64,000 nucleotides of DNA from positions 527,501 to 591,500 of the forward strand of contig CAWDDT010000009.1 in the NCBI GenBank assembly GCA_963801165.1. Reading direction: 5' to 3'. This document shows positions 9,049 through 27,047 of the stretch, in pieces. This DNA comes from an uncultured bacterium. GTDB lineage: Bacteria; Actinomycetota; Acidimicrobiia; Spongiisociales; UBA5794. The stretch's first letter is position 1, and the number at the start of each line of letters is the position of its first letter. The notes under the pieces were generated by a model that was not told the DNA's origin, did not search any database, and saw only the letters and a program-made list of their open reading frames with translations. The position numbers and the translations under genes were made by a program.

Positions 9049-9612
9049 TTAGCGAATGTTACCGAGAGTGAACACTGCCCACATCTTCAGATATCGCTCG
9101 AGCGATTCGGTGGCGAGCGCTACATCGCCGCCTGCGGCGATCTCCAGCAGCAGTCCGCGGACGACGGCGACGCCCAATCTGAGCTCGGCCTCATTCGGCT
9201 CTATCCCGAGCCGTGCCGAGACATCCGAGGCGACTCTGATCCACGGTTCGGTGAGATTGGCCACGAACTCCTCGGTGCCCGGCTGACCCCGGGAGGCATA
9301 TGCCAGCACTTCGAAGAACAAACGGATGAACGGAAGCAGAGCGGGATCGGTCAATTGAGCCCATTGCATGCGCACCAGAGCCGTCGGTGAGTCGGCGACC
9401 TCTGCCAGGTCCTCGAGGGCGACCCGCTGCTGGGTCTCGATCGTGGTGACAATGGCGGCGATCAGACCCTCCCGGGACCCGAAGTGATAGATGAGCATCC
9501 GGTGGCTGGTCCCGATGCCCGAGGCCAGGGTGCGCAGGCTCGCGTCGATCATGCCATTGGCGGCGACATATGCGATGACCCGGTCGAGCAGGTCCTGGCG
9601 GGCGGAGGACAT
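9049..9612 (-). CDS. TetR/AcrR family transcriptional regulator
   Basis: N-terminal HTH SLRTLASGIGTSHRMLIYHFGSREGL. Confidence 0.9.
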   Translation of the reverse strand: MSSARQDLLDRVIAYVAANGMIDASLRTLASGIGTSHRMLIYHFGSREGLIAAIVTTIETQQRVALEDLAEVADSPTALVRMQWAQLTDPALLPFIRLFFEVLAYASRGQPGTEEFVANLTEPWIRVASDVSARLGIEPNEAELRLGVAVVRGLLLEIAAGGDVALATESLERYLKMWAVFTLGNIR

Positions 9613-9630
9613 GCACCAAGGATAGAGAAC

Positions 9631-9646
9631 TGTACCGCTTGGTACA
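9631..9646. promoter_or_regulatory. Putative TetR operator
   Basis: Inverted repeat TGTACC-gctt-GGTACA in the 55-bp gap between the divergent tetR and SRPBCC genes. Confidence 0.6.
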
Positions 9647-9667
9647 AATGCCTGGTAGGGTCATGGC

Positions 9668-10102
9668 ATGGATATCACAGACACACTCGACATAGCCGCA
9701 GCTCCTGACGACGTGTGGGCCCTAACAATGGACGTCGAGCGCTGGCCGGCGATGACGCCAACGATGACCTCGGTAGAGAAGCTCGACGACGGGCCCGTCG
9801 GTCTGGGGAGCCGTGCGCGCATAAAGCAGCCGGGAATGCGGCCGGCGGTATGGACCGTCACCGACTTCGAACCGGCAAGGCTGTTCGCCTGGGAGACCAA
9901 ACTCGGAACGGTGAGGCTCCGAGGGGAGCATCATCTCGAAGCGACGGATGGCGGGTGCCGGAACACGCTCTCGGTCGAGCTGTCGGGTCTCGGCAGCGGC
10001 ATCCTCCGCATGGTCGCCGGGAGGCGACTCCGGGACGCCATTGCCACCGAGAACAGGGGCTTCAAGCAGACGGCGGAGACCGCCGCAAGGTCAGATTCCT
10101 AG
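9668..10102 (+). CDS. SRPBCC / polyketide cyclase-like family protein
   Basis: IAAAPDDVWALTMDVERWP, GPVGLGSRARIKQP, WTVTDFEP. Confidence 0.85.
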   Translation: MDITDTLDIAAAPDDVWALTMDVERWPAMTPTMTSVEKLDDGPVGLGSRARIKQPGMRPAVWTVTDFEPARLFAWETKLGTVRLRGEHHLEATDGGCRNTLSVELSGLGSGILRMVAGRRLRDAIATENRGFKQTAETAARSDS

Positions 10103-11079
10103 GCACCCACCACCTTGGCGGCGGTCTCACCTAGCAGCGCGACCCGCTCGGGAATGTGGCCGTTCGCCGGCAGGTTGATGGTGAACCCATCGATGCCGAG
10201 TGCCAACTCCTTGCTGAGCCTCTCGCCGACGGTGTCGGGGTCGCCAAAGATGAATCGTCCCTGGAGCTGCGATTTCGCCTCGTCGTCCAGGGTCGACAAG
10301 TCGAAGCCCCGGCCTGCCAGATAGGCGCCGAGGTCGGCCTCGGCCTCCTCCATCGTGGGTGCGATGCAGGCGTTGCGTTGCCATGACACGGTGATTTCAG
10401 ACCGATCCCGGCCGAGTGTCTCGCAGTGCTCGTCGAGCGCTTCCAGCTTGCGGGGAACGTCCTGAGGGGCGCAGATGAGATTAGAGTCGTCGGCGTACTG
10501 CGCCACCATGCGCAGAGTCTTCTTCTCACCGGCGCCGCCGATCATCACCGGGATGCGCCCCACCGGGGGTGGCTGGTTGATGACATCCTTGACCTGGTAG
10601 TGCTTGCCGTCGAGGGTCGGGCGCTCGCCGCGCAACATGGGGAGCACGATATTGAGCGATTCCTCGAGCTTCTCGAACCGATCGGTGAACGTCCCGAAGG
10701 GGATCCCAAACGAGTCATGCTCGAGCTCGTACCAACCGGCGCCGATCCCGAGCTGTGCTCGTCCACCGGAGACGATGTCGAGTGCCGTCACCGTCTTGGC
10801 GAGAACGGCCGGATAGCGGTAGGTGTTGCCCGTCACCAGCGACCCGAGACGCACATTCGTGGTCTCCCGCGCCAGGCCCGCCAGCAGCGTGTAGCACTCG
10901 ATCATGTAGTCATCCGGGTTGCCCAGCATGGGAAGCTGATAGAAGTGATCCATCAACAGCACCGTGTCGAACCCGGAGGTGTCGGCTTCCTTCGCCTGGC
11001 GGGCGATGGCCTCGAACAGCCCGGAGGGACCTACATCGGGGTAGGTGAAGTTGGGAATCTGGTATCCGAGCTTGGTCAT
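10099..11079 (-). CDS. LLM-class, probably F420-dependent, oxidoreductase
   Basis: Start at MTKLGYQIPNF. Motifs MDHFYQLP, LVTGNTYRYPAVLAK, GIGAGWYELEH, IGGAGEKKTL. Confidence 0.9.
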   Translation of the reverse strand: MTKLGYQIPNFTYPDVGPSGLFEAIARQAKEADTSGFDTVLLMDHFYQLPMLGNPDDYMIECYTLLAGLARETTNVRLGSLVTGNTYRYPAVLAKTVTALDIVSGGRAQLGIGAGWYELEHDSFGIPFGTFTDRFEKLEESLNIVLPMLRGERPTLDGKHYQVKDVINQPPPVGRIPVMIGGAGEKKTLRMVAQYADDSNLICAPQDVPRKLEALDEHCETLGRDRSEITVSWQRNACIAPTMEEAEADLGAYLAGRGFDLSTLDDEAKSQLQGRFIFGDPDTVGERLSKELALGIDGFTINLPANGHIPERVALLGETAAKVVGA

Positions 11080-14703: not shown

Positions 14704-16467
14704 GTGCGCGAGAATTGGCGTGTGGATGGTCCCTTCTTGGAAGCCAGGGCTGCTTTCGACAGGTGGCGGCAACGCTTCCCGACAAACGTGTTCAGCAGTG
14801 ACGCTCATCTCGATCTGGTGCTCGCTCGCCATATCGATGGTGATCGGTTGGCCTCCCTCCGCGAGGAAGCCGGCAGCTTCGGAGCGGTGGTTGCCGGACA
14901 GCTCGAGCCGTTGGTGGAGACCTACCGAACGCACCTCCCCGAGTTGGTGAAATACGACGGCTATGGGAACCGCATCGAGATGATCCGGTTTCACGATGCC
15001 TACCACACCGCAGGTGAGCTCGTTTGGGGCTCAGGGTTGCTGGCACACTCGGCCGCGGCCGGCGGATCGTTCGAGCAGGCCACCCTGTTCTACCTGGCGT
15101 CGCTGGAGGGGGAGATGGGTCACATGTGCGCCGCAACCTGCACCACAGGAGCGGTCCGGGTGTTGCGCCGCTACGCCGACCCGGACATGTGCAACCGCTA
15201 TCTCCCGGGCTTGACCGGAAACGACTACCGGGCCGCAATCCGGGCGTCGCAGTTTCTTACCGAAGTCCAGGGTGGCAGCGACGTCGGCGCCAACGCCTCG
15301 GTGGCGAGGAGCAGCAGCGAAGGCTACGACATAACGGGGGAGAAGTGGTTCTGCTCGGTGGCCGACGCCGATCTATTCCTGCTACTGGCCCGGCCGGAAG
15401 GTGGGCCGGGTGGGACCTCCGGGCTGGGATGTTTCGTAGTACCCAGGACCATCGATGGCTCACCGAACGGCTTTTCGATACGTCGGCTCAAGGACAAGCT
15501 GGGCACGACGGCCATGGCCTCAGGTGAGGTCGACTTCGACGGCGCCCGGGCCTATGTCGTGGGGGAGCCCGACGCCGGATTCAAGATCATGGTCACGGCC
15601 ATGCTGAACACCAGCCGGTGGCTCAACGCGGTCGGCGACGTGGGCATGATGCGTCGTGCCTATGTGGAGGCCGCCAACTACGCCGCCGAACGCACCGCGT
15701 TCGGACGCCGCATCGGTGACTTCCCGCTCGTCCGCCGTCAGCTCGGCGAGATCAAGGCCGAGTGGCTGGCGGCCCTGCACAGCACGTGGGAGTTGACCGG
15801 GCTCGACGAAGCCGTCGACATCGAGGCGATGGGCGGGTCGCCGGTATCGTCGCTGGATGAGGGGTTCCATCGCTATCTCGTGAACGCCAACAAGCTCGTG
15901 TGCTCGCTTGCAGCCACCGGGGTGGTGCGGGCGGCGATCGAGGTGCTCGGCGGTAACGGGGCGATCGAGGAGTTCAGCGTTCTGCCCCGCTTGTTGCGTG
16001 ATGCGGTCGTCTACGAGCAATGGGAGGGCACCCACAACGTGCTGACGGCGCAGGTGTTGCGAGATCTGGGCAGGTTGGGGCTCGCCGGCACGGTCGTCGA
16101 CCGCACCGCCACCATCCTCAAGGGCATTGCCGATCCGGACCTGGGCCATGTCGCCGATCGTGCCCAGACCGAGCTCGAGGAGCTGGCCGGCAGGGTGGCC
16201 GAATGCGTCCACGAGCCCGAGTACGGCGCTCTGCATTTCCGTGGGTTGCTGGAGCGGTTGGTCCGGGCACATCAGGTGGCGCTGCTGCTCCAGGGCGCCG
16301 AAGCGGCGGCCGCTGCCGGGGATGATCGCTCGGGCGAGTTGGGAGTCGAGCTGTCGGCCGCAGCCGAGATCATCCTCGGTCGGTATGTCGAGCGCGACTA
16401 CCGCTCTGAGGAAGATCCCCGCTTCGAGAGCCTGGTGGCCCGGCTGCTCGGCTCAGATCTGGGGTAG
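14704..16467 (+). CDS. Acyl-CoA dehydrogenase (AidB-like subfamily)
   Basis: QFLTEVQGGSDVG, GEKWFCS, RRLKDKLGT..MASGEV, GGNGAIEEF, WEGTHNV. The start could be the GTG at 14722. Confidence 0.88.
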   Translation: MRENWRVDGPFLEARAAFDRWRQRFPTNVFSSDAHLDLVLARHIDGDRLASLREEAGSFGAVVAGQLEPLVETYRTHLPELVKYDGYGNRIEMIRFHDAYHTAGELVWGSGLLAHSAAAGGSFEQATLFYLASLEGEMGHMCAATCTTGAVRVLRRYADPDMCNRYLPGLTGNDYRAAIRASQFLTEVQGGSDVGANASVARSSSEGYDITGEKWFCSVADADLFLLLARPEGGPGGTSGLGCFVVPRTIDGSPNGFSIRRLKDKLGTTAMASGEVDFDGARAYVVGEPDAGFKIMVTAMLNTSRWLNAVGDVGMMRRAYVEAANYAAERTAFGRRIGDFPLVRRQLGEIKAEWLAALHSTWELTGLDEAVDIEAMGGSPVSSLDEGFHRYLVNANKLVCSLAATGVVRAAIEVLGGNGAIEEFSVLPRLLRDAVVYEQWEGTHNVLTAQVLRDLGRLGLAGTVVDRTATILKGIADPDLGHVADRAQTELEELAGRVAECVHEPEYGALHFRGLLERLVRAHQVALLLQGAEAAAAAGDDRSGELGVELSAAAEIILGRYVERDYRSEEDPRFESLVARLLGSDLG

Positions 16468-17193
16468 GAGCGCGGCGAACCGGTTCATCAGCTCGTCGAA
16501 GCTGGTCGGGGTCACCGTCACGTACCCGTCGCGGTGGCTGAGCCGCCAGTATCCGGCGAAGCTCCCGTCGAGCACGGACAGGCGTGCCTCCTCGCGGTGA
16601 CGCCGGTCGCCGAGCCAGACAGACTCGACCGTCCACAGTGAGCGGCGCATGATGAGGGTGGCCAGCATGCGGTCGACCCACGGCGCGGCGATCCCGGCGG
16701 CCGTCATCTCCTGCTCGGCACGCAGCGGGTCTGTGGTGATCATCGACTCGATGCGGGTGAGCGTCGCGATCGGCAGGCGGAAGCTACCCGCGTAGGCGGG
16801 CTGCGGCCGGGGTACGAGGCGAACCGCCTGGGCGAGATGGAAGGGAAGGAGCGGTGGATCGATCTGAATCAATTCGAAACGGCCGTCGTGGTCCCGACAG
16901 CCGAGAACTGCGGTGGAGCCGTTCCGCCAGATCGTTGCCAGCTCCGGTTTCTCCGCCGGGCGGGCGTTGTCGATCTCCAGGGTGACCACGAACGTCGGGT
17001 TGGTGATGACCGAGACGAGCGAGCTCACCAGTGGGTCCAGACGGGTTGCCGCCATGATTCCGGCGGCGCGGAGCTCGGTGAGCATCGCCGCGGCCGGGAC
17101 CCTGCCCGAATGTATCGCAAGCAGCGAAGGCATGAGGCGACGTGGGATAGAGACCGAGCGCCGTCCCCGGTCGACAAGCGGTTCGCCGCTCAT
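16453..17193 (-). CDS. EspG-like ESX secretion-associated protein (putative)
   Basis: 246 aa with an EspG-like pattern: ELRAAGI..RLDP.V..LV.V..NP, WRNGSTAVL, LPFHLAQAV.L.PRP, SVLDG..GYW, VTVTPT..DEL..RFAALLP. Lies beside WXG100 and EccC genes. Confidence 0.6.
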   Translation of the reverse strand: MSGEPLVDRGRRSVSIPRRLMPSLLAIHSGRVPAAAMLTELRAAGIMAATRLDPLVSSLVSVITNPTFVVTLEIDNARPAEKPELATIWRNGSTAVLGCRDHDGRFELIQIDPPLLPFHLAQAVRLVPRPQPAYAGSFRLPIATLTRIESMITTDPLRAEQEMTAAGIAAPWVDRMLATLIMRRSLWTVESVWLGDRRHREEARLSVLDGSFAGYWRLSHRDGYVTVTPTSFDELMNRFAALLPQI

Positions 17194-18041
17194 ACGGCCG
17201 CCGGGGCGACGTCGGCGACCACCCAGACGCCGCCGGAGATGGCCATGGTCAGCACGTACTGGAGTTGGTGAGTGATGCCGTTGCTCTTGGTGGCAACGAC
17301 GCCAATCCGGATCTCGCCCGTCAGGTTGGCACCGAGAGGTCGGGCGGCGATCTCCTGGTAGGGCGCGGTATCGAAGCGGACGATGTTGCTCGGTGATGCC
17401 AGATAGCGGCTCAGCTCGTCACCGCCGGTCAGGTACTCCTGAATGAAGGCCATTGCTGCGACCGCCTGGTCGTCCGGAACCGGATCGGAGAACAGCGAGG
17501 CCGTCTGATCGACCACGGCCGCGATCGGCACCCGGGAAGGCAACCCGATTGCGGTCGGCTTGTCACCGACCGAGGTGACGAGGACGTTGAATTCCTGGAG
17601 ATCGGCCGGCTCGTAGACGGTATCCGCCAGCTCGAGCGCATCGACGGCAACCGTCACCGACCAGGTGTGATCGTCGACCGGCTCCCCGGCGATGGCGGCC
17701 GTCTGGTTGATCCAAATGCGTTGCTGGTCACCATCGGCGACGGCCGACAACTCGCGGGCTGTATAGAGCTCGGCGTAACCGGCGATCTCAGCCGGTAGTC
17801 CTGGGGTTTCCCCAACCACAGTCGAAGAGCCCGTAGTCAGGCCCGAGCCAAACCAGCCGGCCACCGCACCTACGAACAGCGCCAGGGCGACGCCGAAGGT
17901 GACCCACAGTCTGCTGCCCCTGTGCGGTGTGGAGGCCGGTGCGGGCTCGATCGGCGGTGGCACCCGGCACGAGTGTTGCGGCGGCGGCTCGGGCGACGAG
18001 GAATCGTCGACGGGGGTCCCGAGGATATCGACGAGGCTCAT
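17190..18041 (-). CDS. TcpC / VirB8-like conjugal-transfer scaffold protein (putative)
   Basis: Pro-rich N-terminus, one TM helix, then two NTF2-like halves: GYAELY..WSVTVAV..FNVLV..GLPSRVP and AFIQEYLTGGDELSRY..YVLTM..GGVWVVADV. ATGA-coupled to both neighbours. Confidence 0.68.
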   Translation of the reverse strand: MSLVDILGTPVDDSSSPEPPPQHSCRVPPPIEPAPASTPHRGSRLWVTFGVALALFVGAVAGWFGSGLTTGSSTVVGETPGLPAEIAGYAELYTARELSAVADGDQQRIWINQTAAIAGEPVDDHTWSVTVAVDALELADTVYEPADLQEFNVLVTSVGDKPTAIGLPSRVPIAAVVDQTASLFSDPVPDDQAVAAMAFIQEYLTGGDELSRYLASPSNIVRFDTAPYQEIAARPLGANLTGEIRIGVVATKSNGITHQLQYVLTMAISGGVWVVADVAPAAV

Positions 18042-18886
18042 GGCTGTAACCCGGCGATGGGTAAGAGGATCATCTCCCCGGGGTAGATGAGATTGGGGTC
18101 GCCCGACCTGAGCGTGTCCCGGTTGGCGGCGATCACCGTGCGCCAATAGTCGTCGATCTGAGCAGAGGTCGGCTTGTCACCAAGCACGGTCCGCAGACGT
18201 GCGGCGGCGATAGTCCAGAGGTTGTCTCCCCGCTCGACCGTGTAGGTGGAGTCGGTGGCGGGACCGGTGACCGCGGCGGCAACCGCCGGAAGATTTGCGA
18301 TAACGGCCGGCTGGACGGCGTCGGGCGGGGGTGCTTCGGAGGTCGGAGGAGCGACCGGCTGTTCGGGCGGGGTGTCGAGTTGCGGGGTGACCGCGGGCGT
18401 CTGCTCGGCTACGGGTGTCGGCTCGTGATTGTTCATCGCGGGACCGATGTGGGGGACGGGAATGCCGTCCGGGGAGGTCTCGAAGACGATGGGCGGTGGC
18501 GTCGGTTGCGCCGGTTCCGCCCGCAGTGATGCGACCGGCGCTGCGAGCACGGAGATCGCCAGCGACGCGGCCAGGGTGCCATCGATGAGCCGTCTGATCG
18601 GGGGCAGCGTCACCAGAGAGATCCAGTGCGGCCGGTGTTCGGCTCTGACCAGCGACAGCGCGTAGTAGAGGACGGTTGTGATGAGTACCCAGTACCCGAT
18701 CGCCAGCCCGGCGTAGCGAAATCCGGCTCCCATCACGTCGGCGGGAGCGGAGGCGTTGATCCAGGTGAGCGGGCTCTGCCAGTCGACGGCAAACCCCGGC
18801 ACGCCGCCCAACGCATGCAGTCCCACCGTGATGAGGGTTGTTGCTGCAAGCAACCCCGCGATCCCGGAAGTCCTGTACCTGTCCAT
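18038..18886 (-). CDS. Membrane protein with Pro-rich linker and C-terminal LysM peptidoglycan-binding domain
   Basis: 2-3 N-terminal hydrophobic helices and YTVERGDNLWTIA..ANR..DPNLIYPGEMILLP. Confidence 0.88.
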   Translation of the reverse strand: MDRYRTSGIAGLLAATTLITVGLHALGGVPGFAVDWQSPLTWINASAPADVMGAGFRYAGLAIGYWVLITTVLYYALSLVRAEHRPHWISLVTLPPIRRLIDGTLAASLAISVLAAPVASLRAEPAQPTPPPIVFETSPDGIPVPHIGPAMNNHEPTPVAEQTPAVTPQLDTPPEQPVAPPTSEAPPPDAVQPAVIANLPAVAAAVTGPATDSTYTVERGDNLWTIAAARLRTVLGDKPTSAQIDDYWRTVIAANRDTLRSGDPNLIYPGEMILLPIAGLQP

Positions 18887-18892
18887 AACGCA

Positions 18893-18964
18893 ACCCTACA
18901 AGCAATAGATCTATATTGTCAAGAGTTATATAGGATTGACAATCGTTAAATATCGTTATAGCGT
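18893..18964. promoter_or_regulatory. Back-to-back sigma70/SigA-type promoters in an AT-rich spacer
   Basis: Plus strand: TTGACA(18936-41)-N17-TAGCGT(18959-64). Minus strand: TTGACA(18922-17)-N18-TAGGGT(18898-93), which ends 7 nt before the LysM ATG (leaderless). The two -35 boxes form the inverted repeat ATTGTCAA-N13-TTGACAAT. Confidence 0.7.
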
Positions 18965-19012
18965 TTGAATCCATCAAGTCTGGATCAGCCAGGCAGAAAG
19001 AAAGGAAAGGCA

Positions 19013-19288
19013 ATGGCAGCAGGGATGTTTGGGGCAAACCTGGCCGATCTCGATCAGCTCCGATCGTTGTTTGACAACAAGGCGGGCGAGGTTCAGAGCC
19101 TCGAGTCGACCCTCACCAGCAAGGTTGCCCCCGGCGCAACCGCCTGGGAAGGGCCGGGCGCCGACAAGTTCCGGTCTGCTTGGGAGACCGAGTTCGCACC
19201 GGCTCTGCGCAATCTCCGCGAGGCGCTCGTTCAGGCCGGTGTAGCGGTCGCCAAGTACCGGGACAACATTGAGATGGCGACTCGCTGA
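19013..19288 (+). CDS. WXG100 family type VII secretion substrate
   Basis: 91 aa, helical, with central WEGPGADKFRSAW. Strong RBS AAAGGAAAGG. Confidence 0.9.
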   Translation: MAAGMFGANLADLDQLRSLFDNKAGEVQSLESTLTSKVAPGATAWEGPGADKFRSAWETEFAPALRNLREALVQAGVAVAKYRDNIEMATR

Positions 19289-19299
19289 GGAGCGTTGCA

Positions 19300-19656
19300 G
19301 TGACCCCCGAAGAGCTCCGTCGCAGGGCCCGCCAGAAACGATCTGACGCGGCCGATCTCGCAGCCGATGCAGATCGACTGCGTAGCCAGGCGGCGGCTCT
19401 CAGGGGGTTGCTCGATCCATTGCTGCCGATGTCCCGGCGAGTCTGGGTGGGACCGGCGGCACAAGATTTCGAGAGCGATGTCAGGCGGTATGGTGGCATG
19501 GTCGATGATCAGGCGAGCCGTCTCACCGCGATCGCAGGCGAATTCGATAGACGGGCGGCTGATGCGCGCCACACCGCAGCGACCCTCGATGCCCAGGCGA
19601 CGGCCGCAGAATTGGCCGTGGCGGGAACCGCGGTATCGGTGGGCGGGGTCGTCTGA
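19300..19656 (+). CDS. Second WXG100-like protein
   Basis: 118 aa, Ala-rich helical hairpin with central WVGPAAQDF. RBS GAGGAG. The stop overlaps the EccC start. Confidence 0.8.
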   Translation: MTPEELRRRARQKRSDAADLAADADRLRSQAAALRGLLDPLLPMSRRVWVGPAAQDFESDVRRYGGMVDDQASRLTAIAGEFDRRAADARHTAATLDAQATAAELAVAGTAVSVGGVV

Positions 19657-22600
19657 TGAACCTGGTCGTCCGCTGGCAGGGTGAGGAGTACGAGGTCTCC
19701 GTAGATATCGGTGACGAGTCGCTCCCGGTAGGCAAGATGCTCGGTGCCCTCCTAGACGTCGAGCCACCGTTGATCGCCGTTGACGGGCGGCCCCTTGATC
19801 CCACGACTCCCATTGCCGAGGCGAGCCTCGGCGACGGGACGGTGATCGACGCCTCCATAGAGGGCGATCCACGTCTGGTTGGTGTGCTTCTCGATGTTGG
19901 CGGATCCCGATCGTTTGTCGTTCGACAGCTCCGGGTGGGCACGCTCACCATCGGTGCTTTCCCCGCAGACGTTCCGGTAGACACACCAGGTAGGGTCGTC
20001 CTCCGTGCCGACTCCGGCGGCGCCGTGTTCGTCCGCAACATCGATGGTGCAGACGCCCGGCTGGGCGGGTCACCAGTCGAGCCGGCCGAGACTCGCGTCT
20101 CACCCGGCAGCGTTCTGAGCCTCGGGAGGCGGTCGTTTGCGGTTAGCGCCGAGGTTGAATGCCGGCAACGCCACGGTGTCTTCAACCGCCCACCGCGGCG
20201 AGTGGCAGGGTACCGGCCCGCACCTCTCCAGCCACCGCTGCAGCCCGCACAGCCGGCCAAGCCAATGCGCTTCGGATGGGGTGCGCTGATCGTGCCGGTG
20301 ATTCTCGGGCTCGGCATGGCGGTGCTCATCAGCCCACGAATGGCGGTCTTTGCGATCTTCTCCCCGGCGATGTTGCTCGCCAACTGGTTCGAAGATCGGC
20401 GCCGGGCACGCCGGGAGCGGCGTGAGACCGGTGAGGTCTTCAGGGACGCGCTGACGCGCTTCCGCAGCGATGTTTCGCACGCCCACCAGTTAGAGGTTCG
20501 GTACCGGCAGGACAGCGTCGCATCACCCGACGACCTGGAAATGCTGGCACGGCGCGCCGACTCCCGGCTCTGGGAGCGGCGTCACGGCCACGACGACTTC
20601 ATGGCCATTCCTCTTGGCAGCGGGTGTTTGGAGTGGCAGCCGCAATGGAGCGGTTCACCGGCGCAGGAGGCATCCGAGGTTTTCGCCGCGTTCTCCCAGC
20701 TACACGACGTGCCGGTGGTGGTCGACCTACGGGCGGGCGACGTCGTCGGGGTGGCCGGGGACCGCACCACCGCCCTCGGGGTCATGCGCCAACTGGTGCT
20801 CCAGGCTGCCGTGCACCACGGTCCCGCCGACCTGTCCATCAGTGTTTTTACCGAGAACGCCGCCGATTGGGATTGGGTCAAGTGGCTGCCACACGTCGAC
20901 GCCGGGGGGCGTCGCAGGCTGGCCGGGTCGCTCGGCGATATCGAAGACGTGCTGGAGATGCTGCCACCCGGCGAGGAGCCGGCGGACTTGCGTCACCTGT
21001 TGCTGATCGATCTCCCCGATCTGCTCACCGGGCCACAGGCACTGATCCGCGACGTTCTCAAGAATGGCAAGAAGCGGGGAGTCACGGCGGTCGCCGTCGC
21101 TCGGCGAACACTCGACCTGCCATCGCTGGCGACGACGATTGTCGCGCTCTCTCCCGGGCGTAGCCATGTGAGATTTCCCGACGGCAGCGAGGCTCCGGTG
21201 GCTCCGTGGACCATCAGCGCCAGGAGGGCGCGGCGTACCGGACGGGCTCTGGCCCGCATCGACGATCCCGAGACCGGAGGAGCCGGGGTGAACCTGCCCG
21301 CGGTGGCGCATCTCGGTGCCTTGCTCCGGCTCGGCGACGATCCCGAGGCGGTCATTGCCCGGCGCTGGCGGGCGTGCGGCAATTGCCCGGTAGCCCCCAT
21401 CGGGGTTTCGGCCGAGGGGCTGTTCAGCATCGACCCGGTCGCGGACGGTCCCCATGCACTGCTCGGCGGCACTACCGGCTCCGGCAAGTCCGAGCTGCTG
21501 CGCAGCCTGGTGGCATCGCTGGCAGCCTCGGCGAGCCCGACCGCACTCAACTTCGTGCTCGTCGACTACAAGGGTGGCAGCGCGTTCGATGCTTGTGCCG
21601 CCCTGCCGCACACCGTTGGTCTGGTGACCGACCTTGACGAGCATCTCGCCGGGCGGGCACTCGTATGTCTCGAGTCCGAGCTGAGATACCGGGAGGAGCG
21701 GCTGCGCAATGCCGGGGTTTCCGACATTTCCGATCTCGTCGCAGGCGAAACCGAGCCTCTGCCGCGACTGTTTGTGGTGATCGACGAGTTCGCCGCACTC
21801 GCCACAGAGCTCCCGGACTTCATGAATGCTCTGGTCGGCATCGCCCAGCGCGGGCGCAGCCTCGGTGTCCATTTGCTGCTCGCCACACAGCGACCGAACG
21901 GTGTCATCGACGACAAGATCAAGGCCAACACCAACCTCAGGATGGCGCTGCGAGTCCAGGACGCAGCAGACTCGGTCGACGTCATCGGAACCGCCGACGC
22001 CGCGGCAATTGCCAGAACCCAGCCAGGGAGGGCGCTGGCCCGGCTGGGCCCCGGTGACACCGTTGCGTTCCAGACTGCGCTGGTGACCGGCCACTCTATG
22101 GCACAACAGAGCGTCGCTGTGTCGGCCTGCCCGTTTGCGTTTGCGTGCGAGCCACCCACACCAGGGAACCGGGCTACGCCGGAAGACGAAGGTCCGAGCG
22201 ATCTGGAGCTGATCGTTGCCGCGGCGGATTCGGTTGCGCACAGGCTGCATCTGCCCGCCGCACGTCTCCCCTGGCCCGCCCCGCTCCCCGCCAACGTAAC
22301 CCTCGATGACATGCCGGGGATGGGTGTCGGAGGAGCGGTCTTCGCCATGGCGGACGAGCCACACCGGCAGCGACGGGTGGCTGCCGGGTGGTCGCCGGCG
22401 GCGGGCAACCTCCTGCTCTACGGTCTCCCCGGGAGTGGGACGACGACGGCGGTCGCCACGATTGCGGTGACGACCGCCCGGGCGAGCGATCCCAACCGGC
22501 TGCACATGTACGTTCTCGACTTCGATGACCAGCTGTTGCAGCCGCTGCGCGATCTACCGCAAGTCGGTGCCGTCATCGCGGGTAGCGATCGGGAACGCCA

Positions 22601-23714
22601 GCTCAGGTTGCTGCGTCGTCTCGGGGCCGAGCTCCAACACCGCAGGCAGACAATGGCGGACGGGATATCCGACCCCACGCAACATCCCACGATCGTCACT
22701 TTCCTGGACAACTTCGGAGGCTTCGCCGACAGCTACGGGGAGCCGGGGGACATGGCGGTTCACAACCTCCTCGCCCGGCTGATCGCCGATGGGCCGGGGG
22801 TGGGGATGATGACGATCATCACAGCCAAGCATCCTGGTGACGTTCCCACACGGATCGCGTCGACCGTGGGCAGCCGACTCGTGTTCCGCCTTGCCGATCG
22901 CTACGACTACAGCGGGCTCGGTGTTCCGCCCGTCGATCCGCCGAAGACACCGGGTCGGGCGTTCGAGTCCGGAAGCGGGCGCGAGGTTCAGGTGGCTCTG
23001 GCTCACCAGGACGGGCTGGGCGCGGCCATCGCTGCACATCCGCTGGCAGTGCCCGCCAACCCCCCGTGGCGTATCGACGTGCTCCCCAGCGAAGTCTCGA
23101 TCGCCACCTTCATCTCGCGGGGCCGGATTGCGTCGGACGAGTGGTATCTCCCACTCGGGATCGGGGACTCGTCGCTCGTGCCGGTCGGCCTCATGCTGAG
23201 AGACGGTGAGCATGCGCTGGTTGCCGGCCCGGCGCGCTCGGGAAAGACAACGGCGCTGGCCACGATCGCCGCCGTGGCCAAGGCCGCCGATCCGGGGCTG
23301 TATGTGGCCGCGATCACGCCCAGGCGCTCGACCCTCGGCGGCTGCCCGGCTGTTGACGCGGTCGTCGATCCGGGTGACCTTGCCACGTTTGCCAGGGCGT
23401 CGGTGCTGCTGCTTGTCGACGATGCCGAACTCGTGGACAACGGGGAGGGTCTCAGCAGGATCATCACCGAGCGCGACCCGTCAATCCGTATCGTCGCCGC
23501 CGGCAACGCCGACGCACTCCGCACCCGGTACGGTCACTGGACCCAGGAGCTGAGGCGGTCCCGCATCGGATGTGCGCTACGACCGAACCCGCTGGCCGAC
23601 GGCGATCTGTGGCAGACCCAGTTGCCCAGAGGAGATCAGCAGTCCTTCCCCGTTGGGCGCGGCTACCTGGTGTCGGACGGGCGGGTAGAGCTGGTGCAGC
23701 TCGGAAGAGATTGA
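19656..23714 (+). CDS. Type VII secretion ATPase of EccC/EssC type (ubiquitin-like + FHA-like + 2 TM + three FtsK/SpoIIIE domains)
   Basis: FNRPPR, TM pair, LWERR..DF. ATPase 1: DGPHALLGGTTGSGKSELL, VDYKGG, VIDEF, GRSLGVHLLLATQRP. ATPase 2: GLPGSGTT. ATPase 3: GPARSGKT. Confidence 0.92.
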   Translation: MNLVVRWQGEEYEVSVDIGDESLPVGKMLGALLDVEPPLIAVDGRPLDPTTPIAEASLGDGTVIDASIEGDPRLVGVLLDVGGSRSFVVRQLRVGTLTIGAFPADVPVDTPGRVVLRADSGGAVFVRNIDGADARLGGSPVEPAETRVSPGSVLSLGRRSFAVSAEVECRQRHGVFNRPPRRVAGYRPAPLQPPLQPAQPAKPMRFGWGALIVPVILGLGMAVLISPRMAVFAIFSPAMLLANWFEDRRRARRERRETGEVFRDALTRFRSDVSHAHQLEVRYRQDSVASPDDLEMLARRADSRLWERRHGHDDFMAIPLGSGCLEWQPQWSGSPAQEASEVFAAFSQLHDVPVVVDLRAGDVVGVAGDRTTALGVMRQLVLQAAVHHGPADLSISVFTENAADWDWVKWLPHVDAGGRRRLAGSLGDIEDVLEMLPPGEEPADLRHLLLIDLPDLLTGPQALIRDVLKNGKKRGVTAVAVARRTLDLPSLATTIVALSPGRSHVRFPDGSEAPVAPWTISARRARRTGRALARIDDPETGGAGVNLPAVAHLGALLRLGDDPEAVIARRWRACGNCPVAPIGVSAEGLFSIDPVADGPHALLGGTTGSGKSELLRSLVASLAASASPTALNFVLVDYKGGSAFDACAALPHTVGLVTDLDEHLAGRALVCLESELRYREERLRNAGVSDISDLVAGETEPLPRLFVVIDEFAALATELPDFMNALVGIAQRGRSLGVHLLLATQRPNGVIDDKIKANTNLRMALRVQDAADSVDVIGTADAAAIARTQPGRALARLGPGDTVAFQTALVTGHSMAQQSVAVSACPFAFACEPPTPGNRATPEDEGPSDLELIVAAADSVAHRLHLPAARLPWPAPLPANVTLDDMPGMGVGGAVFAMADEPHRQRRVAAGWSPAAGNLLLYGLPGSGTTTAVATIAVTTARASDPNRLHMYVLDFDDQLLQPLRDLPQVGAVIAGSDRERQLRLLRRLGAELQHRRQTMADGISDPTQHPTIVTFLDNFGGFADSYGEPGDMAVHNLLARLIADGPGVGMMTIITAKHPGDVPTRIASTVGSRLVFRLADRYDYSGLGVPPVDPPKTPGRAFESGSGREVQVALAHQDGLGAAIAAHPLAVPANPPWRIDVLPSEVSIATFISRGRIASDEWYLPLGIGDSSLVPVGLMLRDGEHALVAGPARSGKTTALATIAAVAKAADPGLYVAAITPRRSTLGGCPAVDAVVDPGDLATFARASVLLLVDDAELVDNGEGLSRIITERDPSIRIVAAGNADALRTRYGHWTQELRRSRIGCALRPNPLADGDLWQTQLPRGDQQSFPVGRGYLVSDGRVELVQLGRD

Positions 23715-23716
23715 TC

Positions 23717-25123
23717 GTGTCCATCACCAACGCCATCGATCCCGATGGGCTCGTTGCCCTCGCCGACATTGCCGACCGATGCGCAGAGCAGATCGCCGTA
23801 CTCAGGAGAGGCACGACCGCCGTGCTGAGGCGGCATGCCGTCGCCGATGAGAGGGCCGTCGACTACCGGCTGGCGTCCGTGGGGACGAAGCTGGCGGTAC
23901 GCACGAACGAGCTGAGATTGCGCGCCGCGGTCATGGAGCGGACCCAGCAGATCTCCTTGTGCAGCCTCGACCTGTTCACGGACCACGGCCTTGGCCGGTT
24001 CGCCGCAACCGCCGTCTTCGACCCCGAGACGTGGCGCGGCGACTATGAGAAGTGGCGTCTCGCTCAGGTCGTTGGCGACCTGGGGGTGATGGATCCCCGG
24101 CGCCGGGCCAGGGCGTTTGCCACGATGACGGTGTCTGAGATGGCCGATCTGGTTCTGTCCTACCCGGAGGAGATCGGGGCGATGGACGGCGCGCCTGCGG
24201 CCCTTCGCTATACAGCGAACTGGAGACTGATCCGCAACGAGATCGAGCAACTCGAGGTGCTGGAATCCGAGCTGGCTTCCAATCGTTCACCGATCCGGGA
24301 CATGATGCTCGATCTAGTAGAGCAGAGGCGCAGCGAGTACCGGCGCTGGCTGGTCGAGAATCGGCAGATCCTGCTTTTTGACCCCTCCGGCGATGGGCGT
24401 GTGGTCGAGGTGTTTGGGGATCTCGCCGATGCCACCAGGGTTGCCGTGGTCGTGCCGGGGATGGCCAACAGCATCGACAACTTCAGCGATGGCGACGGCG
24501 GCTTTCGGCACAACGCCGCCGATCTCTATGCGGCATCCGAAAACCCGGAGATTGCCACCATCGCGTGGCTCGGGTACGACAGCCCGGACAACGTCGGCGC
24601 TATGTCACGGTCGGCGGCCGACCAGGGCGCTCCCGCACTGCAGAGTTTTCTGCAGGGCATAGACCCGGGGGATGATCGTGCGATCACGGTGATAGCCCAC
24701 AGCTACGGCTCGGTGCTCGCGGGGACCGCTGCTCGTACCGGGCTCGAGGCCAATGACCTGGTCTTCGTCGGCAGCCCGGGCACCACGCTGGACACCGCAG
24801 GCGACGCAGTGCTGCGCTCCGATGGTCGGGTATGGGTGGGGCTGGCCGACGGCGATCCGATCACGCTCGGCATCAACCCGAGAGAGCTGCCTCCCTGGTG
24901 GCTGCCGCCTCCGCTCTGGACCACCTGGATGGCGTTTGACATGTGGCACGGCGGCCCGGAGGAGCTCTGGTATGGAACCAATCCTGCCAGCGACGAGTTT
25001 GGTGCCGTACGGTTCGCCACCGACGGGTCGAACGGGCACTCGGAGTACTTCCGGGCCGAGGCTCTGGACAACCTCGCCATGATCGTCGAGGGCCGCTACG
25101 GCGACGTGGAGCTGGGGGGATGA
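23717..25123 (+). CDS. Alpha/beta hydrolase (DUF1023/Abhydrolase_8-like lipase) with helical N-terminal domain, putative T7SS effector
   Basis: VVVPG, IAWLGYDSP, AHSYGS, FVGSPG, DGDPI, GHSEYF. No signal peptide. Directly follows eccC (start is TTG 23711 or GTG 23717). Confidence 0.8.
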   Translation: MSITNAIDPDGLVALADIADRCAEQIAVLRRGTTAVLRRHAVADERAVDYRLASVGTKLAVRTNELRLRAAVMERTQQISLCSLDLFTDHGLGRFAATAVFDPETWRGDYEKWRLAQVVGDLGVMDPRRRARAFATMTVSEMADLVLSYPEEIGAMDGAPAALRYTANWRLIRNEIEQLEVLESELASNRSPIRDMMLDLVEQRRSEYRRWLVENRQILLFDPSGDGRVVEVFGDLADATRVAVVVPGMANSIDNFSDGDGGFRHNAADLYAASENPEIATIAWLGYDSPDNVGAMSRSAADQGAPALQSFLQGIDPGDDRAITVIAHSYGSVLAGTAARTGLEANDLVFVGSPGTTLDTAGDAVLRSDGRVWVGLADGDPITLGINPRELPPWWLPPPLWTTWMAFDMWHGGPEELWYGTNPASDEFGAVRFATDGSNGHSEYFRAEALDNLAMIVEGRYGDVELGG

Positions 25124-25207: not shown

Positions 25208-25840
25208 CTAGATCAGATCGCGGTCCTGCGCCCAGCGGGTCAGCTCGCGCCGGTTCGACAGCTGGAGCTTGCGCAACACGGCCGACATGTGGTTCTCGAC
25301 GGTCTTGGCGGAGATGAAGAGCTGCTCTCCTACTTCGCGATATGTGTAGCCGCGGGCGATGTGCTGCAGTACCTCGCGCTCCCGCTTGGTCAACTTGTCG
25401 AGCTCCGGGTCGAGACCTTTGACGTCCATCGTGGCGAACGCATCGAGGACGAATCCAGCCAGTTTGGGGGAGAAGACGGCATCGCCGTCGACGACCCGAC
25501 GGATCGCTTCGGCGAGATCGGCGGGAGACACCGTCTTGGTGACATAGCCGCGGGCCCCCGCACGCACCGTGGCCACGACATCTTCCGGAGCATCGGACGC
25601 GGAGATAGCGAGAAATGGGATGTCGGGGTGAGTGGCGTGGACCCCCTCGATTACCGCCCGGCCGCCTCCGTCTGGCATGTGCACGTCGACCAGAACCAGA
25701 TCGGGGCGGCGCTCCCGAATCATCTCGACGGCAGCCTCGACGTTGGAGGCATCACCCACGATCTCCAGGTCGTCCGGTAGCTCGGCTTTGACACCGGCGC
25801 GGAACAGGTCGTGATCATCGACGACGAAGACGCGGGTCAT
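25208..25840 (-). CDS. NarL/LuxR family response regulator
   Basis: VVDDH, LVDVHMP, GYVTK, LTKREREVL, TVENH. Confidence 0.93.
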   Translation of the reverse strand: MTRVFVVDDHDLFRAGVKAELPDDLEIVGDASNVEAAVEMIRERRPDLVLVDVHMPDGGGRAVIEGVHATHPDIPFLAISASDAPEDVVATVRAGARGYVTKTVSPADLAEAIRRVVDGDAVFSPKLAGFVLDAFATMDVKGLDPELDKLTKREREVLQHIARGYTYREVGEQLFISAKTVENHMSAVLRKLQLSNRRELTRWAQDRDLI

Positions 25841-26964
25841 GGTCTCTCCACCGGTAGCCGGAGCCGGACCTCGGTGCCTTTGCCCGGGCCTGAGACTATC
25901 TCTGCTGTGCCGCCGTGACGTTCCATACGGTTGACGATAGATTCCCGGATTCCGCGACGTGACTCCGGGATCGCTGCCGGGTCGAATCCGGAGCCGCGGT
26001 CCTTGACGAACACGAGCACCTCCCCTTCGTTGGCCTCACCGTAGACGGAGATCGTGTCGACGCCTGCGTGCTTGCTTGCGTTGAGCACCGCCTCGCGGGC
26101 GGCTCGCACGATCGGGTCGAACTCACCGGTGCTGTCACCGACCACTACCACCTCCACGCTGGCATCCCCCCAATCTTCGATCTCGGAACATACTGCGGTC
26201 AGTGCGTCGCGGAAGCCGGGGCTGCCGTTTCCGTTGCCACGAGTTTCGGGGAACAGCCATCCCCGCAGCTCACGCTCCTGGTGGCGAGCCAATCCGCGGA
26301 TATCGGTGGTGGCGGCCGGGTCGCGCTGGATGAGGGCGAGTGTCTGCAGCACCGAATCGTGGAGATGCGCCGCCATCTCAGCGTGCTCTTCGGCCCGGAT
26401 GCGCTCGGTTCGTTCTTTCGCCAGAGCCGTCTCGGCGGCTGCTCGGCGCCGGTCGGCTGTGCGCAGTGCGGCTGCCACCCCCGCGGCCGCACCTACTGAG
26501 AACAGGTGGGCGATCGCGTTGGCAAAGTCCTGGGGATCCAGCCCACCGTCCCACGCCCGACCCAGCCCGGCACCCGTCAAGACCACGGCACCAACGGCGC
26601 CACCGGTCCAGCCGTAGGCGTAGATCGCCGAGAACGCCCCCACCAGCGGGTAGCCGCCGCCGAACTGGATGCTTCCCGCAAAATCACCGGCGACCACTGC
26701 CCAACACGAGATGGCGAGGTCGAGGGCTACGAACCACCACGTCGAGAGGAGTCGCGGGCGAGTCAGCCTCGCCAGGACGCTCGCAGCCGCCCACAGGAGA
26801 ACGAGTGCGATCGTGGCCATGACCACTCCGGGCCGATCGACCGGGGTCTTGGCGCTGCCGACGGTCACGCCACCGAGAATCGAGAGCCACATGGCGGCGA
26901 AGACACGGTAACCGGTGACGATCCACAGCAGCGTCTGCTCCAAAGCGGCGGGGCGTTGCTCCAT
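25837..26964 (-). CDS. Membrane sensor histidine kinase (HisKA_3 type)
   Basis: Multiple TM helices, AAHLHDSVLQTLALIQR, NASKHAG, DRGSGFD, GKGTEV. Confidence 0.9.
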   Translation of the reverse strand: MEQRPAALEQTLLWIVTGYRVFAAMWLSILGGVTVGSAKTPVDRPGVVMATIALVLLWAAASVLARLTRPRLLSTWWFVALDLAISCWAVVAGDFAGSIQFGGGYPLVGAFSAIYAYGWTGGAVGAVVLTGAGLGRAWDGGLDPQDFANAIAHLFSVGAAAGVAAALRTADRRRAAAETALAKERTERIRAEEHAEMAAHLHDSVLQTLALIQRDPAATTDIRGLARHQERELRGWLFPETRGNGNGSPGFRDALTAVCSEIEDWGDASVEVVVVGDSTGEFDPIVRAAREAVLNASKHAGVDTISVYGEANEGEVLVFVKDRGSGFDPAAIPESRRGIRESIVNRMERHGGTAEIVSGPGKGTEVRLRLPVERP

Positions 26965-27047
26965 GGGTGGAGCGTACCTCGGTCCGATGAACCCGGTTCG
27001 AACCCGGTGACAGGACACCCGTGTCTCGAGCACGTATCATTCGCCGT

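Follow-up and report, generated by a model that had tools for sequence, protein, structure and literature searches.

How do type VII secretion systems (T7SSs) cross the cell wall, beyond the cytoplasmic membrane? The question is unsettled, and the accessory membrane proteins are wholly different between T7SSa, T7SSb and the newer subtypes. It is raised again by a locus in an uncultured bacterium of the class Acidimicrobiia (GTDB lineage Actinomycetota; Acidimicrobiia; Spongiisociales; UBA5794; assembly GCA_963801165.1), found at 16453-25123 of a stretch of 64,000 nucleotides of contig CAWDDT010000009.1 (positions 527,501 to 591,500), which we call the window. Here, genes for an EccC-type ATPase, two WXG100 proteins and a hydrolase face away from genes for a LysM membrane protein, a TcpC/VirB8-like protein and an EspG-family protein. 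A first-pass annotation, made from the sequence of the window, had proposed a minimal or hybrid T7SS in which a domesticated conjugation scaffold and a peptidoglycan-binding protein form the trans-envelope part. We find that the locus is a T7SS by its two universal parts, and that it is neither T7SSa, T7SSb, nor T7SSd as described. It is probably a subtype as yet undescribed, confined in the sampled genomes to one order of the class.

The seven-gene locus and its conservation

All seven open reading frames (ORFs) of the original proposal were found again, arranged as two divergent operons around a 126-bp, AT-rich intergenic stretch:

16453..17193, minus strand: EspG-family chaperone-like protein, 246 aa, encoded at the end of the left operon; PF14011 55.2 bits, cut-off 27
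17190..18041, minus strand: TcpC/VirB8-like bitopic membrane protein, 283 aa; PF12642 22.9-23.3 bits, under the cut-off of 27
18038..18886, minus strand: LysM membrane protein, 282 aa; PF01476 19.8 bits, under the cut-off of 20.9
18887..19012, both strands: putative divergent promoter region; GC 0.38
19013..19288, plus strand: WXG100-1, 91 aa, WEG motif; PF06013 34.6 bits, cut-off 27.3
19300..19656, plus strand: WXG100-2, 118 aa, WVG motif; PF06013 19 bits, under the cut-off of 27.3
19656..23714, plus strand: EccC/EssC-type ATPase, 1352 aa; FtsK_SpoIIIE (PF01580) 157 bits
23711..25123, plus strand: Abhydrolase_8 serine hydrolase, ~470 aa; PF06259 123 bits

The genes are tightly packed. The LysM/TcpC-like and TcpC-like/EspG junctions are both ATGA overlaps, which could be read directly as the annotation had reported them; on the right, WXG100-1 and WXG100-2 are separated by an 11-nt gap with GGAG, WXG100-2 and eccC overlap by TGATG, and eccC and the hydrolase gene by TTGA. 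Only the hydrolase start had to be revised: the position given before, 23570, is wrong, the part upstream overlapping EccC, and the gene starts at TTG 23711 or GTG 23717. Searches of 43,412 six-frame ORFs with custom hidden Markov models (HMMs) and phmmer showed all seven genes to be single-copy in the genome.

A T7SS is generally recognized by a multi-P-loop FtsK/SpoIIIE-family ATPase together with adjoining WXG100 genes, and the locus has both. WXG100-1 scores 44.4 bits to TIGR03930, against a cut-off of 44.85, and is 61-92% identical in syntenic loci; WXG100-2 scores 20.7 bits to the same model, and its position is kept in all syntenic loci. The ATPase is the only EccC of the genome, which also encodes one FtsK; it matches both EssC (TIGR03928, 467 bits, cut-off 778) and EccCa (TIGR03924, 362 bits) at scores under the equivalog cut-offs. 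Two stretches matching PF01580 and a third P-loop region give it three P-loop domains, which follow a predicted ubiquitin-like domain (residues 1-68), an FHA domain (~73-168), an FNRPPR motif and a pair of transmembrane (TM) segments (~207-246).

This N-terminal part was examined in a model of residues 1-215, which has a predicted local distance difference test score (pLDDT) of 81.9. Its FHA domain matches 3gqs (Z 13.8, root-mean-square deviation (rmsd) 2.0 over 92 residues), the FHA domains of EssC (5fwh, Z 8.9; 1wv3, Z 8.8) and, in Foldseek, 3poa (E 5.4e-5). Residues 1-68 are modelled as beta-beta-alpha-beta-beta-beta and match Fubi (8bs3_B, Z 8.1 over 68 residues, the match spanning residues 1-77), and the best PDB sequences found with a profile of 16 orthologous EccC N-termini are SAMP2 (E 0.0029), ISG15 (E 0.016) and ubiquitin fusions; we assign a ubiquitin-like domain to these residues with moderate confidence. 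Pfam, run on the N-terminus alone, gave no match for the window protein, YukD included, and weak matches to Yop-YscD_cpl, an FHA-fold family, for the N-termini of relatives. In other T7SS subtypes, the ubiquitin-like and FHA parts are separate proteins or part of EccD. Judging by the model, part of the machinery that had seemed to be missing is present within EccC itself, in the form of the fused ubiquitin-like and FHA domains, which the first-pass annotation had not seen. The FHA segment (~105 residues) is missing from the EccC of four loci (L012, L013, L041 and L044), which keep the first domain and the invariant FNRPPR motif, so that the FHA domain appears to be dispensable within this subtype. 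EccCs without the LysM/TcpC-like pair carry the same N-terminus too, and the N-terminus therefore does not track the pair. As an observation on a single locus, the last ~330 eccC codons of L011 (4279-5191) are spread over several frames, through either an assembly error or a broken gene.

For the comparison between genomes, we used a sample of 401 genomes of the class, of which 97 contain EccC at a threshold of E<=1e-30. The full set of seven genes is present, with order and orientation unchanged, in 6 further loci (L011, L012, L013, L041, L042 and L044, with the hydrolase of L041 cut by a contig end), six of the seven are found in L043, which is without the hydrolase, and the left arm is seen at a contig start in L040. 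The seven-gene locus is thus syntenic across genera, left arm and eccC together, and the same order and orientation in 6 other loci make it more than a chance assembly of genes.

A profile of T7-type TcpC-like proteins matched 48 genomes at E<=1e-3, a tally that includes one weak match that was not used (G212); the matches in G174 and G070 are contig-edge fragments and were kept unclassified. A TcpC-like gene lies at most 2 kb from eccC, on the same contig, in 11 of the 97 EccC-bearing genomes, which belong to three families of one order:

family f1: G000, G266, G279, G303, G306, G309, G399
families f5 and f7: G066, G291, G297 (f5); G238 (f7)

In G372, the arrangement is split by contig ends, and six genomes of a further family, f4, have the LysM/TcpC-like pair without any T7SS or type IV secretion system (T4SS) gene within ~9 kb. 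T7-linked or stand-alone (pair-type) genes occur in 17 of the 26 EccC-bearing genomes in the window's order, versus 0 of 71 in the other orders of the class. Among 20 further EccC loci, the TcpC-like gene stands beside eccC in four (L060, L061, L064, L065), and a LysM gene is present in L060, L064, L065 and L079. Both ORFs of the pair are intact, at 25-64% identity over at least 17 genomes. By this gene context, the pair appears to have become a fixed neighbor of eccC in one order, with a promoter region in common, and to form one operon with EspG in the window's family.

The shared region itself has a GC content of 0.38, versus 0.60-0.71 in the surrounding 500-bp windows. Rightward, a spacer of 17 nt separates TTGACA (18936-18941) from TAGCGT (18959-18964); in the leftward pair, read on the minus strand, the spacer between TTGACA (18922-18917) and TAGGGT (18898-18893) is 18 nt long. 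Because this leftward -10 element ends six nt ahead of the LysM ATG (18886), the sequence suggests a leaderless LysM transcript. The element TTG[AT]CA-17 nt-TAnnnT has the same position in no fewer than nine loci, including L012, L013, L043 and L044, and also in L045, L060, L064 and L065; it has a mirror TTGACA on the opposite strand 13-23 bp away, and the hexamers are kept in loci with differing flanks. The rightward spacer is conserved between loci as well, its version in the window being ATCGTTAAATATCGTTA. A scan for the sigma-70 consensus flagged only a TTGTCA/TGACAA palindrome, so the promoter reading is a comparative one, by which both putative promoters seem to be conserved and shared by the two divergent operons. 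Within the rightward spacer (18943-18958), there is a direct repeat, ATCGTTA-AAT-ATCGTTA, that could be a candidate operator, perhaps for the LuxR-type regulator adjoining the locus.

To identify what the genome lacks, we searched the window's own assembly (98.19% complete, 13 contigs) for the membrane components of other T7SSs, using Corynebacterium (C. glutamicum) or Bacillus (B. subtilis) as positive controls. EccB (PF05108) and EccD (TIGR03920) had no match in the genome, and their controls matched (C. glutamicum for EccB). The best score for mycosin (TIGR03921) was 148 bits versus a cut-off of 278.75, and the matches are generic subtilases on other contigs. EssB/YukC (PF10140), EssA (PF10661) and EsaA (TIGR03929) likewise had no match, with matching B. 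subtilis controls. EccE (PF11203) was not matched in the genome, but its control was matched nowhere either. In the class as a whole, EccB over the cut-off was found in 0 of 401 genomes. The family searches thus agree with the earlier statement that no EccB, EccD, MycP, EssA, EssB or EsaA is visible at the locus, and those for EccB, EccD and mycosin found no complete ESX membrane complex elsewhere in the genome that could account for these genes. The same holds for VirB4 and VirD4, which the annotation had not seen at the locus either: there was nothing over the cut-off for VirB4/AAA_10 and no match for VirD4 (T4SS-DNA_transf), a relaxase not having been searched for, and the VirB4, VirD4, VirB6 and TcpE of relatives, used as queries with custom HMMs and phmmer, had no match in the six-frame ORFs.

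The LysM/TcpC-like pair and its type IV relatives

The TcpC-like protein has 16 close relatives at 51-64% identity, found by a word-indexed search, and a profile of these 16 retrieved 451 cluster representatives at E<=1e-3, 29 of them at E<=1e-30. PF12642 is matched by 99 of the 137 near-full-length family representatives at E<=1e-3 (best 5.2e-16), and its scores are 27-51 bits for relatives that are syntenic or linked to type IV genes. An AlphaFold2 model from the 16-sequence alignment (pLDDT 69.5; predicted template modeling score (pTM) 0.42) has a disordered cytosolic tail, a TM helix at 44-60 (about 44-63 by hydropathy) and two alpha+beta NTF2-like domains outside the membrane. In other words, the model of 17190-18041 has the build of TcpC and VirB8, an N-terminal TM helix with two NTF2-like domains, as had been supposed. 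The top Foldseek matches are TcpC of pCW3 (3UB1, E 1.1e-6) and then OrfG of ICESt3. VIA-align, an aligner independent of Foldseek, also places TcpC at the top (3ub1_A, Z 11.7 over 195 residues spanning both domains), followed by OrfG (8s7l, Z 9.7), TraM (4ec6, Z 9.7), CagV, PrgL and TraE, and superpositions of single domains have an rmsd of 2.4-2.9 Å. The N-terminal tail bears an acidic motif, P-[VI]-x(1,2)-[DE], in 11 of 14 T7- or pair-type proteins versus 1 of 8 type IV proteins with refined starts, a count made without the 7 phylum-level ORFs, whose starts were not refined; in the closest 16 sequences, the tail reads M-S-L-V-D-I-L-G-x-P-V-x-D.

The LysM protein has hydrophobic segments at 8-26, 59-77 and 100-118, followed by a proline-rich linker and a C-terminal LysM-like domain. 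Its loop 79-101 contains four lysine or arginine residues and its loop 27-54 none; based on this distribution, the linker and LysM domain are predicted to lie outside the membrane. The window protein scores 25.8 bits to NF008399 LysM, two homologues exceed the cut-off of PF01476 (23.7 bits in L048 and 25.6 in L046), and the family alignment keeps the signature YTV..GDNLW..IA....N...L.SGDPNLIYPGE..LP. The nearest Atlas clusters are annotated as actinobacterial 'hypothetical protein', and LysM is assigned to 24-46% of their members.

Within the class, more distant TcpC-like homologues belong to loci of another kind, in which TcpC is found with a small ORF, TcpE, VirB4 (AAA_10), VirB6, an M23/SLT hydrolase and VirD4 (class type IV loci L046, L047, L049, L050, L053, L054, L055, L056 and L101). 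A LysM-TM homologue stands directly ahead of TcpC in two class type IV loci, L014 and L051. In a sample of 381 genomes of the phylum, searched with a stricter first pass, all 7 of 7 matches outside the class are TcpC-TcpE-VirB4 type IV loci, as are 8 loci counted within the class, and L089 and L094 contain the LysM-TM gene. As the LysM-TM gene precedes TcpC in these four type IV loci, the LysM/TcpC-like pair appears to travel as a module, the LysM protein being no independent addition. Near the conjugative locus L046 there is also a gene for a 1113-aa LysM-domain protein (16337-19678), with Abi_C and helix-turn-helix (HTH)/M78 genes.

We placed 22 TcpC-like proteins in a neighbor-joining (NJ) tree (Biopython, 100 bootstraps, midpoint-rooted), a method weaker than maximum likelihood, from which the fragmentary or masked proteins of L060 and L064 were excluded. 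In it, the T7-linked proteins are separated from the type IV-linked ones, which make up a single clade (73% bootstrap support), and L065, which is T7-linked, groups with the stand-alone pairs of f4 (85%). A single split between the T7 and type IV contexts is therefore likely on this tree. The proposed 'domesticated conjugation scaffold' fits insofar as its distant homologues are found in TcpE-VirB4-VirB6-hydrolase-VirD4 loci.

Two further observations concern the pair. The stand-alone pair of G106 (L048) and the T7-linked pair of G297 (L064) are both upstream of YqeY and an ATP-dependent DNA ligase, and these common neighbors suggest that esx-eccC may have been excised from, or inserted at, the same site. 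In G303, a second TcpC-like gene exists beside the T7-linked copy (L102, G303:C3:3475200-3495199, at 9596-10435), with no LysM, T7SS or T4SS gene within ~9 kb; it was left out of the counts.

Role of the pair and rival explanations

The remaining two proteins of the locus are considered as candidate cargo and chaperone. The earlier label of lipase for the hydrolase goes further than the evidence; the protein is a serine hydrolase of the Abhydrolase_8 family with the nucleophile motif AHSYGS, and without signal peptide, TM or hydrophobic segment. Its N-terminal domain (~220 aa) is conserved and has no Pfam family and no PDB sequence match better than E 0.22; its Atlas neighbors (Abhydrolase_8, Hydro_N_hd) score <0.9 and are leads only. 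A WXG motif in the hydrolase (a WRG tripeptide) was considered and dropped, because it is not conserved in orthologues. The EspG call holds, with PF14011 over its cut-off and profile positions 38-240 of 245 covered. Of 13 T7-type loci, 7 encode EspG as well as the hydrolase and 5 lack the two; one, L043, has EspG without the hydrolase, and no locus shows the reverse. By analogy with the chaperone-substrate pairs EspG/PE-PPE and EsaE/EsaD (PMC11217815), the hydrolase is a candidate secreted substrate, probably escorted by EspG. In two loci without EspG and hydrolase, a DUF3179 protein is encoded directly downstream of eccC (L045:3099-4607 and L061:6295-7746), and this may be an alternative cargo.

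Taking these parts together, we propose a working model. The right arm would supply motor and cargo: the motor would be a single EccC/EssC ATPase with fused ubiquitin-like and FHA domains, and the cargo would be the WXG100 pair and the Abhydrolase_8 hydrolase, the latter with a leaderless N-terminal domain and, as its probable escort, the EspG-like chaperone that the left arm encodes. The left arm would otherwise be a two-protein envelope module, taken from or common with actinobacterial conjugative type IV systems, in which the three-TM protein would hold peptidoglycan through its external LysM domain, and the bitopic TcpC/VirB8-like protein would oligomerise outside the membrane through its two NTF2-like domains. 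Beside the EccC hexamer, this module could form a wall-anchored scaffold or conduit, in the role otherwise taken by EccB/D/E-MycP or EssA/B-EsaA, and the N-terminal tail of the TcpC-like protein, acidic and conserved, is a possible cytosolic docking peptide. A contact between TcpC and EccC would have a precedent, since TcpC of pCW3 binds TcpA, TcpG and TcpH in two-hybrid assays (PMC3548508), and TcpA, called an FtsK/SpoIIIE homologue in a title of that paper's reference list, would be of the same family as EccC. We infer that the pair belongs to the machine; that it is its wall-side scaffold is the best-supported reading, and one that we consider slightly on the probable side of even. The fuller reading, in which the pair was recruited from conjugative type IV systems as the envelope-spanning part of a T7SS, making an eleventh subtype, we hold more tentatively, at somewhat short of an even chance.

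Several findings weigh against this reading. The link between the pair and EccC is drawn from gene context, the operon structure is predicted from sequence, and the hydrolase is assigned as candidate substrate and EspG as its chaperone by position and co-occurrence. The TcpC-like and LysM calls of the first-pass annotation stand by family and fold evidence, and fail by Pfam cut-offs for the window's own proteins: both are under them, and a genome-wide PF12642 search missed the window gene itself. The TcpC-like model is middling by both of its scores, with a whole-chain rmsd of 13-16 Å that arises because the two domains are oriented differently. In the midpoint-rooted NJ tree, the T7-linked group is poorly supported (32%), and the tree gives no direction of transfer. 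Finally, 80 of the 97 EccC-bearing class genomes have no T7- or pair-type TcpC-like gene, 15 of the 20 further EccC loci consist of EccC and WXG100 genes among housekeeping genes, and one family, f4, keeps the pair unlinked, with EccC on a different contig in G094, G098, G106, G246 and G375 and, in G114, no more than an EccC-like match of 206 residues where a contig begins. The pair is therefore no general requirement, and EccC secretion in the class generally either needs no such pair or uses unseen partners.

These last findings also feed the view that the pair is an independent envelope module, such as a wall-anchored scaffold serving another process, which in some lineages happens to adjoin a minimal EccC/WXG100 locus, and that EccC with its fused domains is the whole membrane machine. 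Six f4 genomes have the pair standing alone, beside prs, WhiB, YqeY and ligase genes, G114 among them lacks a clear EccC, and most class EccC loci are without the pair. Yet the pair and esx-eccC have a conserved bidirectional promoter region in common in 11 genomes from three families, despite differing flanks, and the window's family shows translational coupling of the pair to EspG, which belongs to a T7SS-specific family. The grouping of the stand-alone pairs with the T7-linked L065, moreover, fits a secondary separation, with 5 of the 6 genomes still containing EccC. On these grounds, we consider an independent module, the main rival, unlikely; were the pair unrelated to secretion after all, the class would still have EccC/WXG100 loci without any known membrane partner.

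The combination of genes also calls to mind DNA transfer between cells, with the FtsK/SpoIIIE-family ATPase as translocase: EccC is in that family, and T7SS genes with virB4 and tcpC form the core of mycobacterial ESX plasmids (PMC5381665, PMC4173767). This is very improbable for a locus that is syntenic across genera and whose ATPase is built of three domains, as EccC/EssC is, and has WXG100 partners, in a genome where VirB4, VirD4, VirB6 and TcpE were not found (a relaxase was outside the search). The locus lies in the chromosome between metabolic genes; of the 17 flanking ORFs, the 10 with family matches include no integrase or transposase, and the other 7 have no such match. We give hardly any credence to the left arm being a decaying remnant of an integrated conjugative element beside a T7SS locus. 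Conjugative type IV loci do contain the nearest non-T7 homologues of the TcpC-like gene, but a remnant is difficult to reconcile with two intact ORFs kept at the identities given above, with conserved start-stop overlaps and promoter hexamers, with a GC content equal to that of the surroundings, or with the lack of other element genes nearby or in the genome. The locus is best explained as a chromosomal, vertically inherited T7SS locus.

The surroundings of the locus are those of housekeeping genes, as originally described. Its GC content is even, the left arm showing no departure, and the flanks encode phosphofructokinase, MenH-like hydrolases, acyl-CoA dehydrogenase, ProC, proline dehydrogenase, an extracytoplasmic function (ECF) sigma factor, MscS, a glycosidase and a two-component pair:

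25208..25840, minus strand: LuxR-type response regulator; Pfam match
25837..27033, minus strand: histidine kinase; Pfam match

By association, this regulator and kinase are possible regulators of the locus; the two-component pair adjoins the hydrolase gene in L011, L012, L013 and L042 and not in L041, L043 and L044. The sequencing runs found for the window are soil and salt-marsh DNA metagenomes, with no RNA run among them. Elsewhere in the class, eccC is found with a small WXG-like ORF inside a Pup-proteasome cluster (L068:4112-16597), together with genes for a proteasomal ATPase, two members of the Pup-ligase family and two subunits of the proteasome. In L067 (12155-14673), the genes after eccC encode a WXG100-like protein, a Ser/Thr kinase, an ECF sigma factor and an anti-sigma factor of the zf-HC2 type, with an Abhydrolase_8-like ORF upstream on the opposite strand.

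If the proposed recruitment of the pair is true, the accessory layers of T7SSs would be interchangeable modules, and type IV and type VII systems would have exchanged a module directly. This would link T4SS and T7SS evolution, beside the structural homology reported for TraF and EssB (PMC13037476), and a seven-gene T7SS would be small enough for reconstitution.

Comparison with known secretion systems

In the literature, we found no description of this arrangement and none of type VII secretion in Acidimicrobiia. The current scheme recognizes ten subtypes, T7SSa-j, of which T7SSd is the only new actinobacterial one (Garrett, Higginson and Palmer 2024, PMC11217815), and the terms TcpC, VirB8, LysM, NTF2 and Acidimicrob* are absent from the main text of that classification. 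The locus resembles T7SSa (ESX) in its EccC-type multi-domain ATPase, the WXG100 pair directly upstream of it and the EspG-family gene, the last of which is shared more widely, as several subtypes are reported with EspG-like proteins (PMC11217815). Unlike T7SSa, it has no EccB, EccD or mycosin, it has LysM and TcpC-like membrane proteins, and its EccC bears N-terminal ubiquitin-like and FHA domains in the model. With T7SSb (Ess), it has in common the FHA fold in the N-terminal part of the ATPase and a ubiquitin-like element, represented in T7SSb by a protein of its own, EsaB/YukD, and the best NCBIfam match of the ATPase is EssC (TIGR03928), at 467 bits under the cut-off of 778. It differs in being without EssB/YukC, EssA and EsaA, in having one FHA domain rather than two, and in that the ubiquitin-like part is fused. 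T7SSd, known from Olsenella and Bifidobacterium, is similar in its occurrence in Actinomycetota, its few components and the FHA domain on its ATPase. It is described with a Ser/Thr kinase, TsdD, with TsdH and with a 1654-aa Ig-like protein, TsdI, and with no ubiquitin-like protein (PMC11217815), whereas the present locus encodes none of the three, having no kinase and no protein of TsdI size, and appears to have a fused ubiquitin-like domain.

Among systems related to conjugation, the pRAW-type ESX plasmids are alike in bringing a T7SS and a tcpC-like gene together. Conjugation of mycobacterial plasmids needs an ESX system as well as type IV-like genes, tcpC among them (PMC5381665, PMC4173767), and virB4 and tcpC are core genes of these plasmids next to a full ESX set (PMC5381665). 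The difference is that those systems are plasmid-borne and have EccA-E, MycP and VirB4, while the present locus is chromosomal, with no such ESX set or VirB4 found. TcpC of pCW3, OrfG of ICESt3 and TraM of pIP501 share with the TcpC-like protein the N-terminal TM helix followed by NTF2-like domains; here, the gene is without VirB4, VirB6, TcpE and coupling protein, in an operon with EspG and divergent from esx-eccC, and the acidic motif in the N-terminal tail of the T7-type protein is absent in 7 of 8 type IV-linked relatives. FHA-EccC fusions in Actinomycetes have been tied to the Esr threat-sensing pathway, which is reported as confined to that class (PMC13622651); we considered this pathway as an explanation and rejected it on account of that confinement and because it involves no left-arm protein and the locus contains no Esr component. 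The earliest stage of ESX evolution has been described as a bare FtsK/WXG100 cluster (Mortimer et al., PMC5381665), to which the window locus adds EspG, the hydrolase and the LysM/TcpC-like pair. What is new here is an EccC with fused ubiquitin-like and FHA domains, as modelled, and the conservation of both putative promoters.

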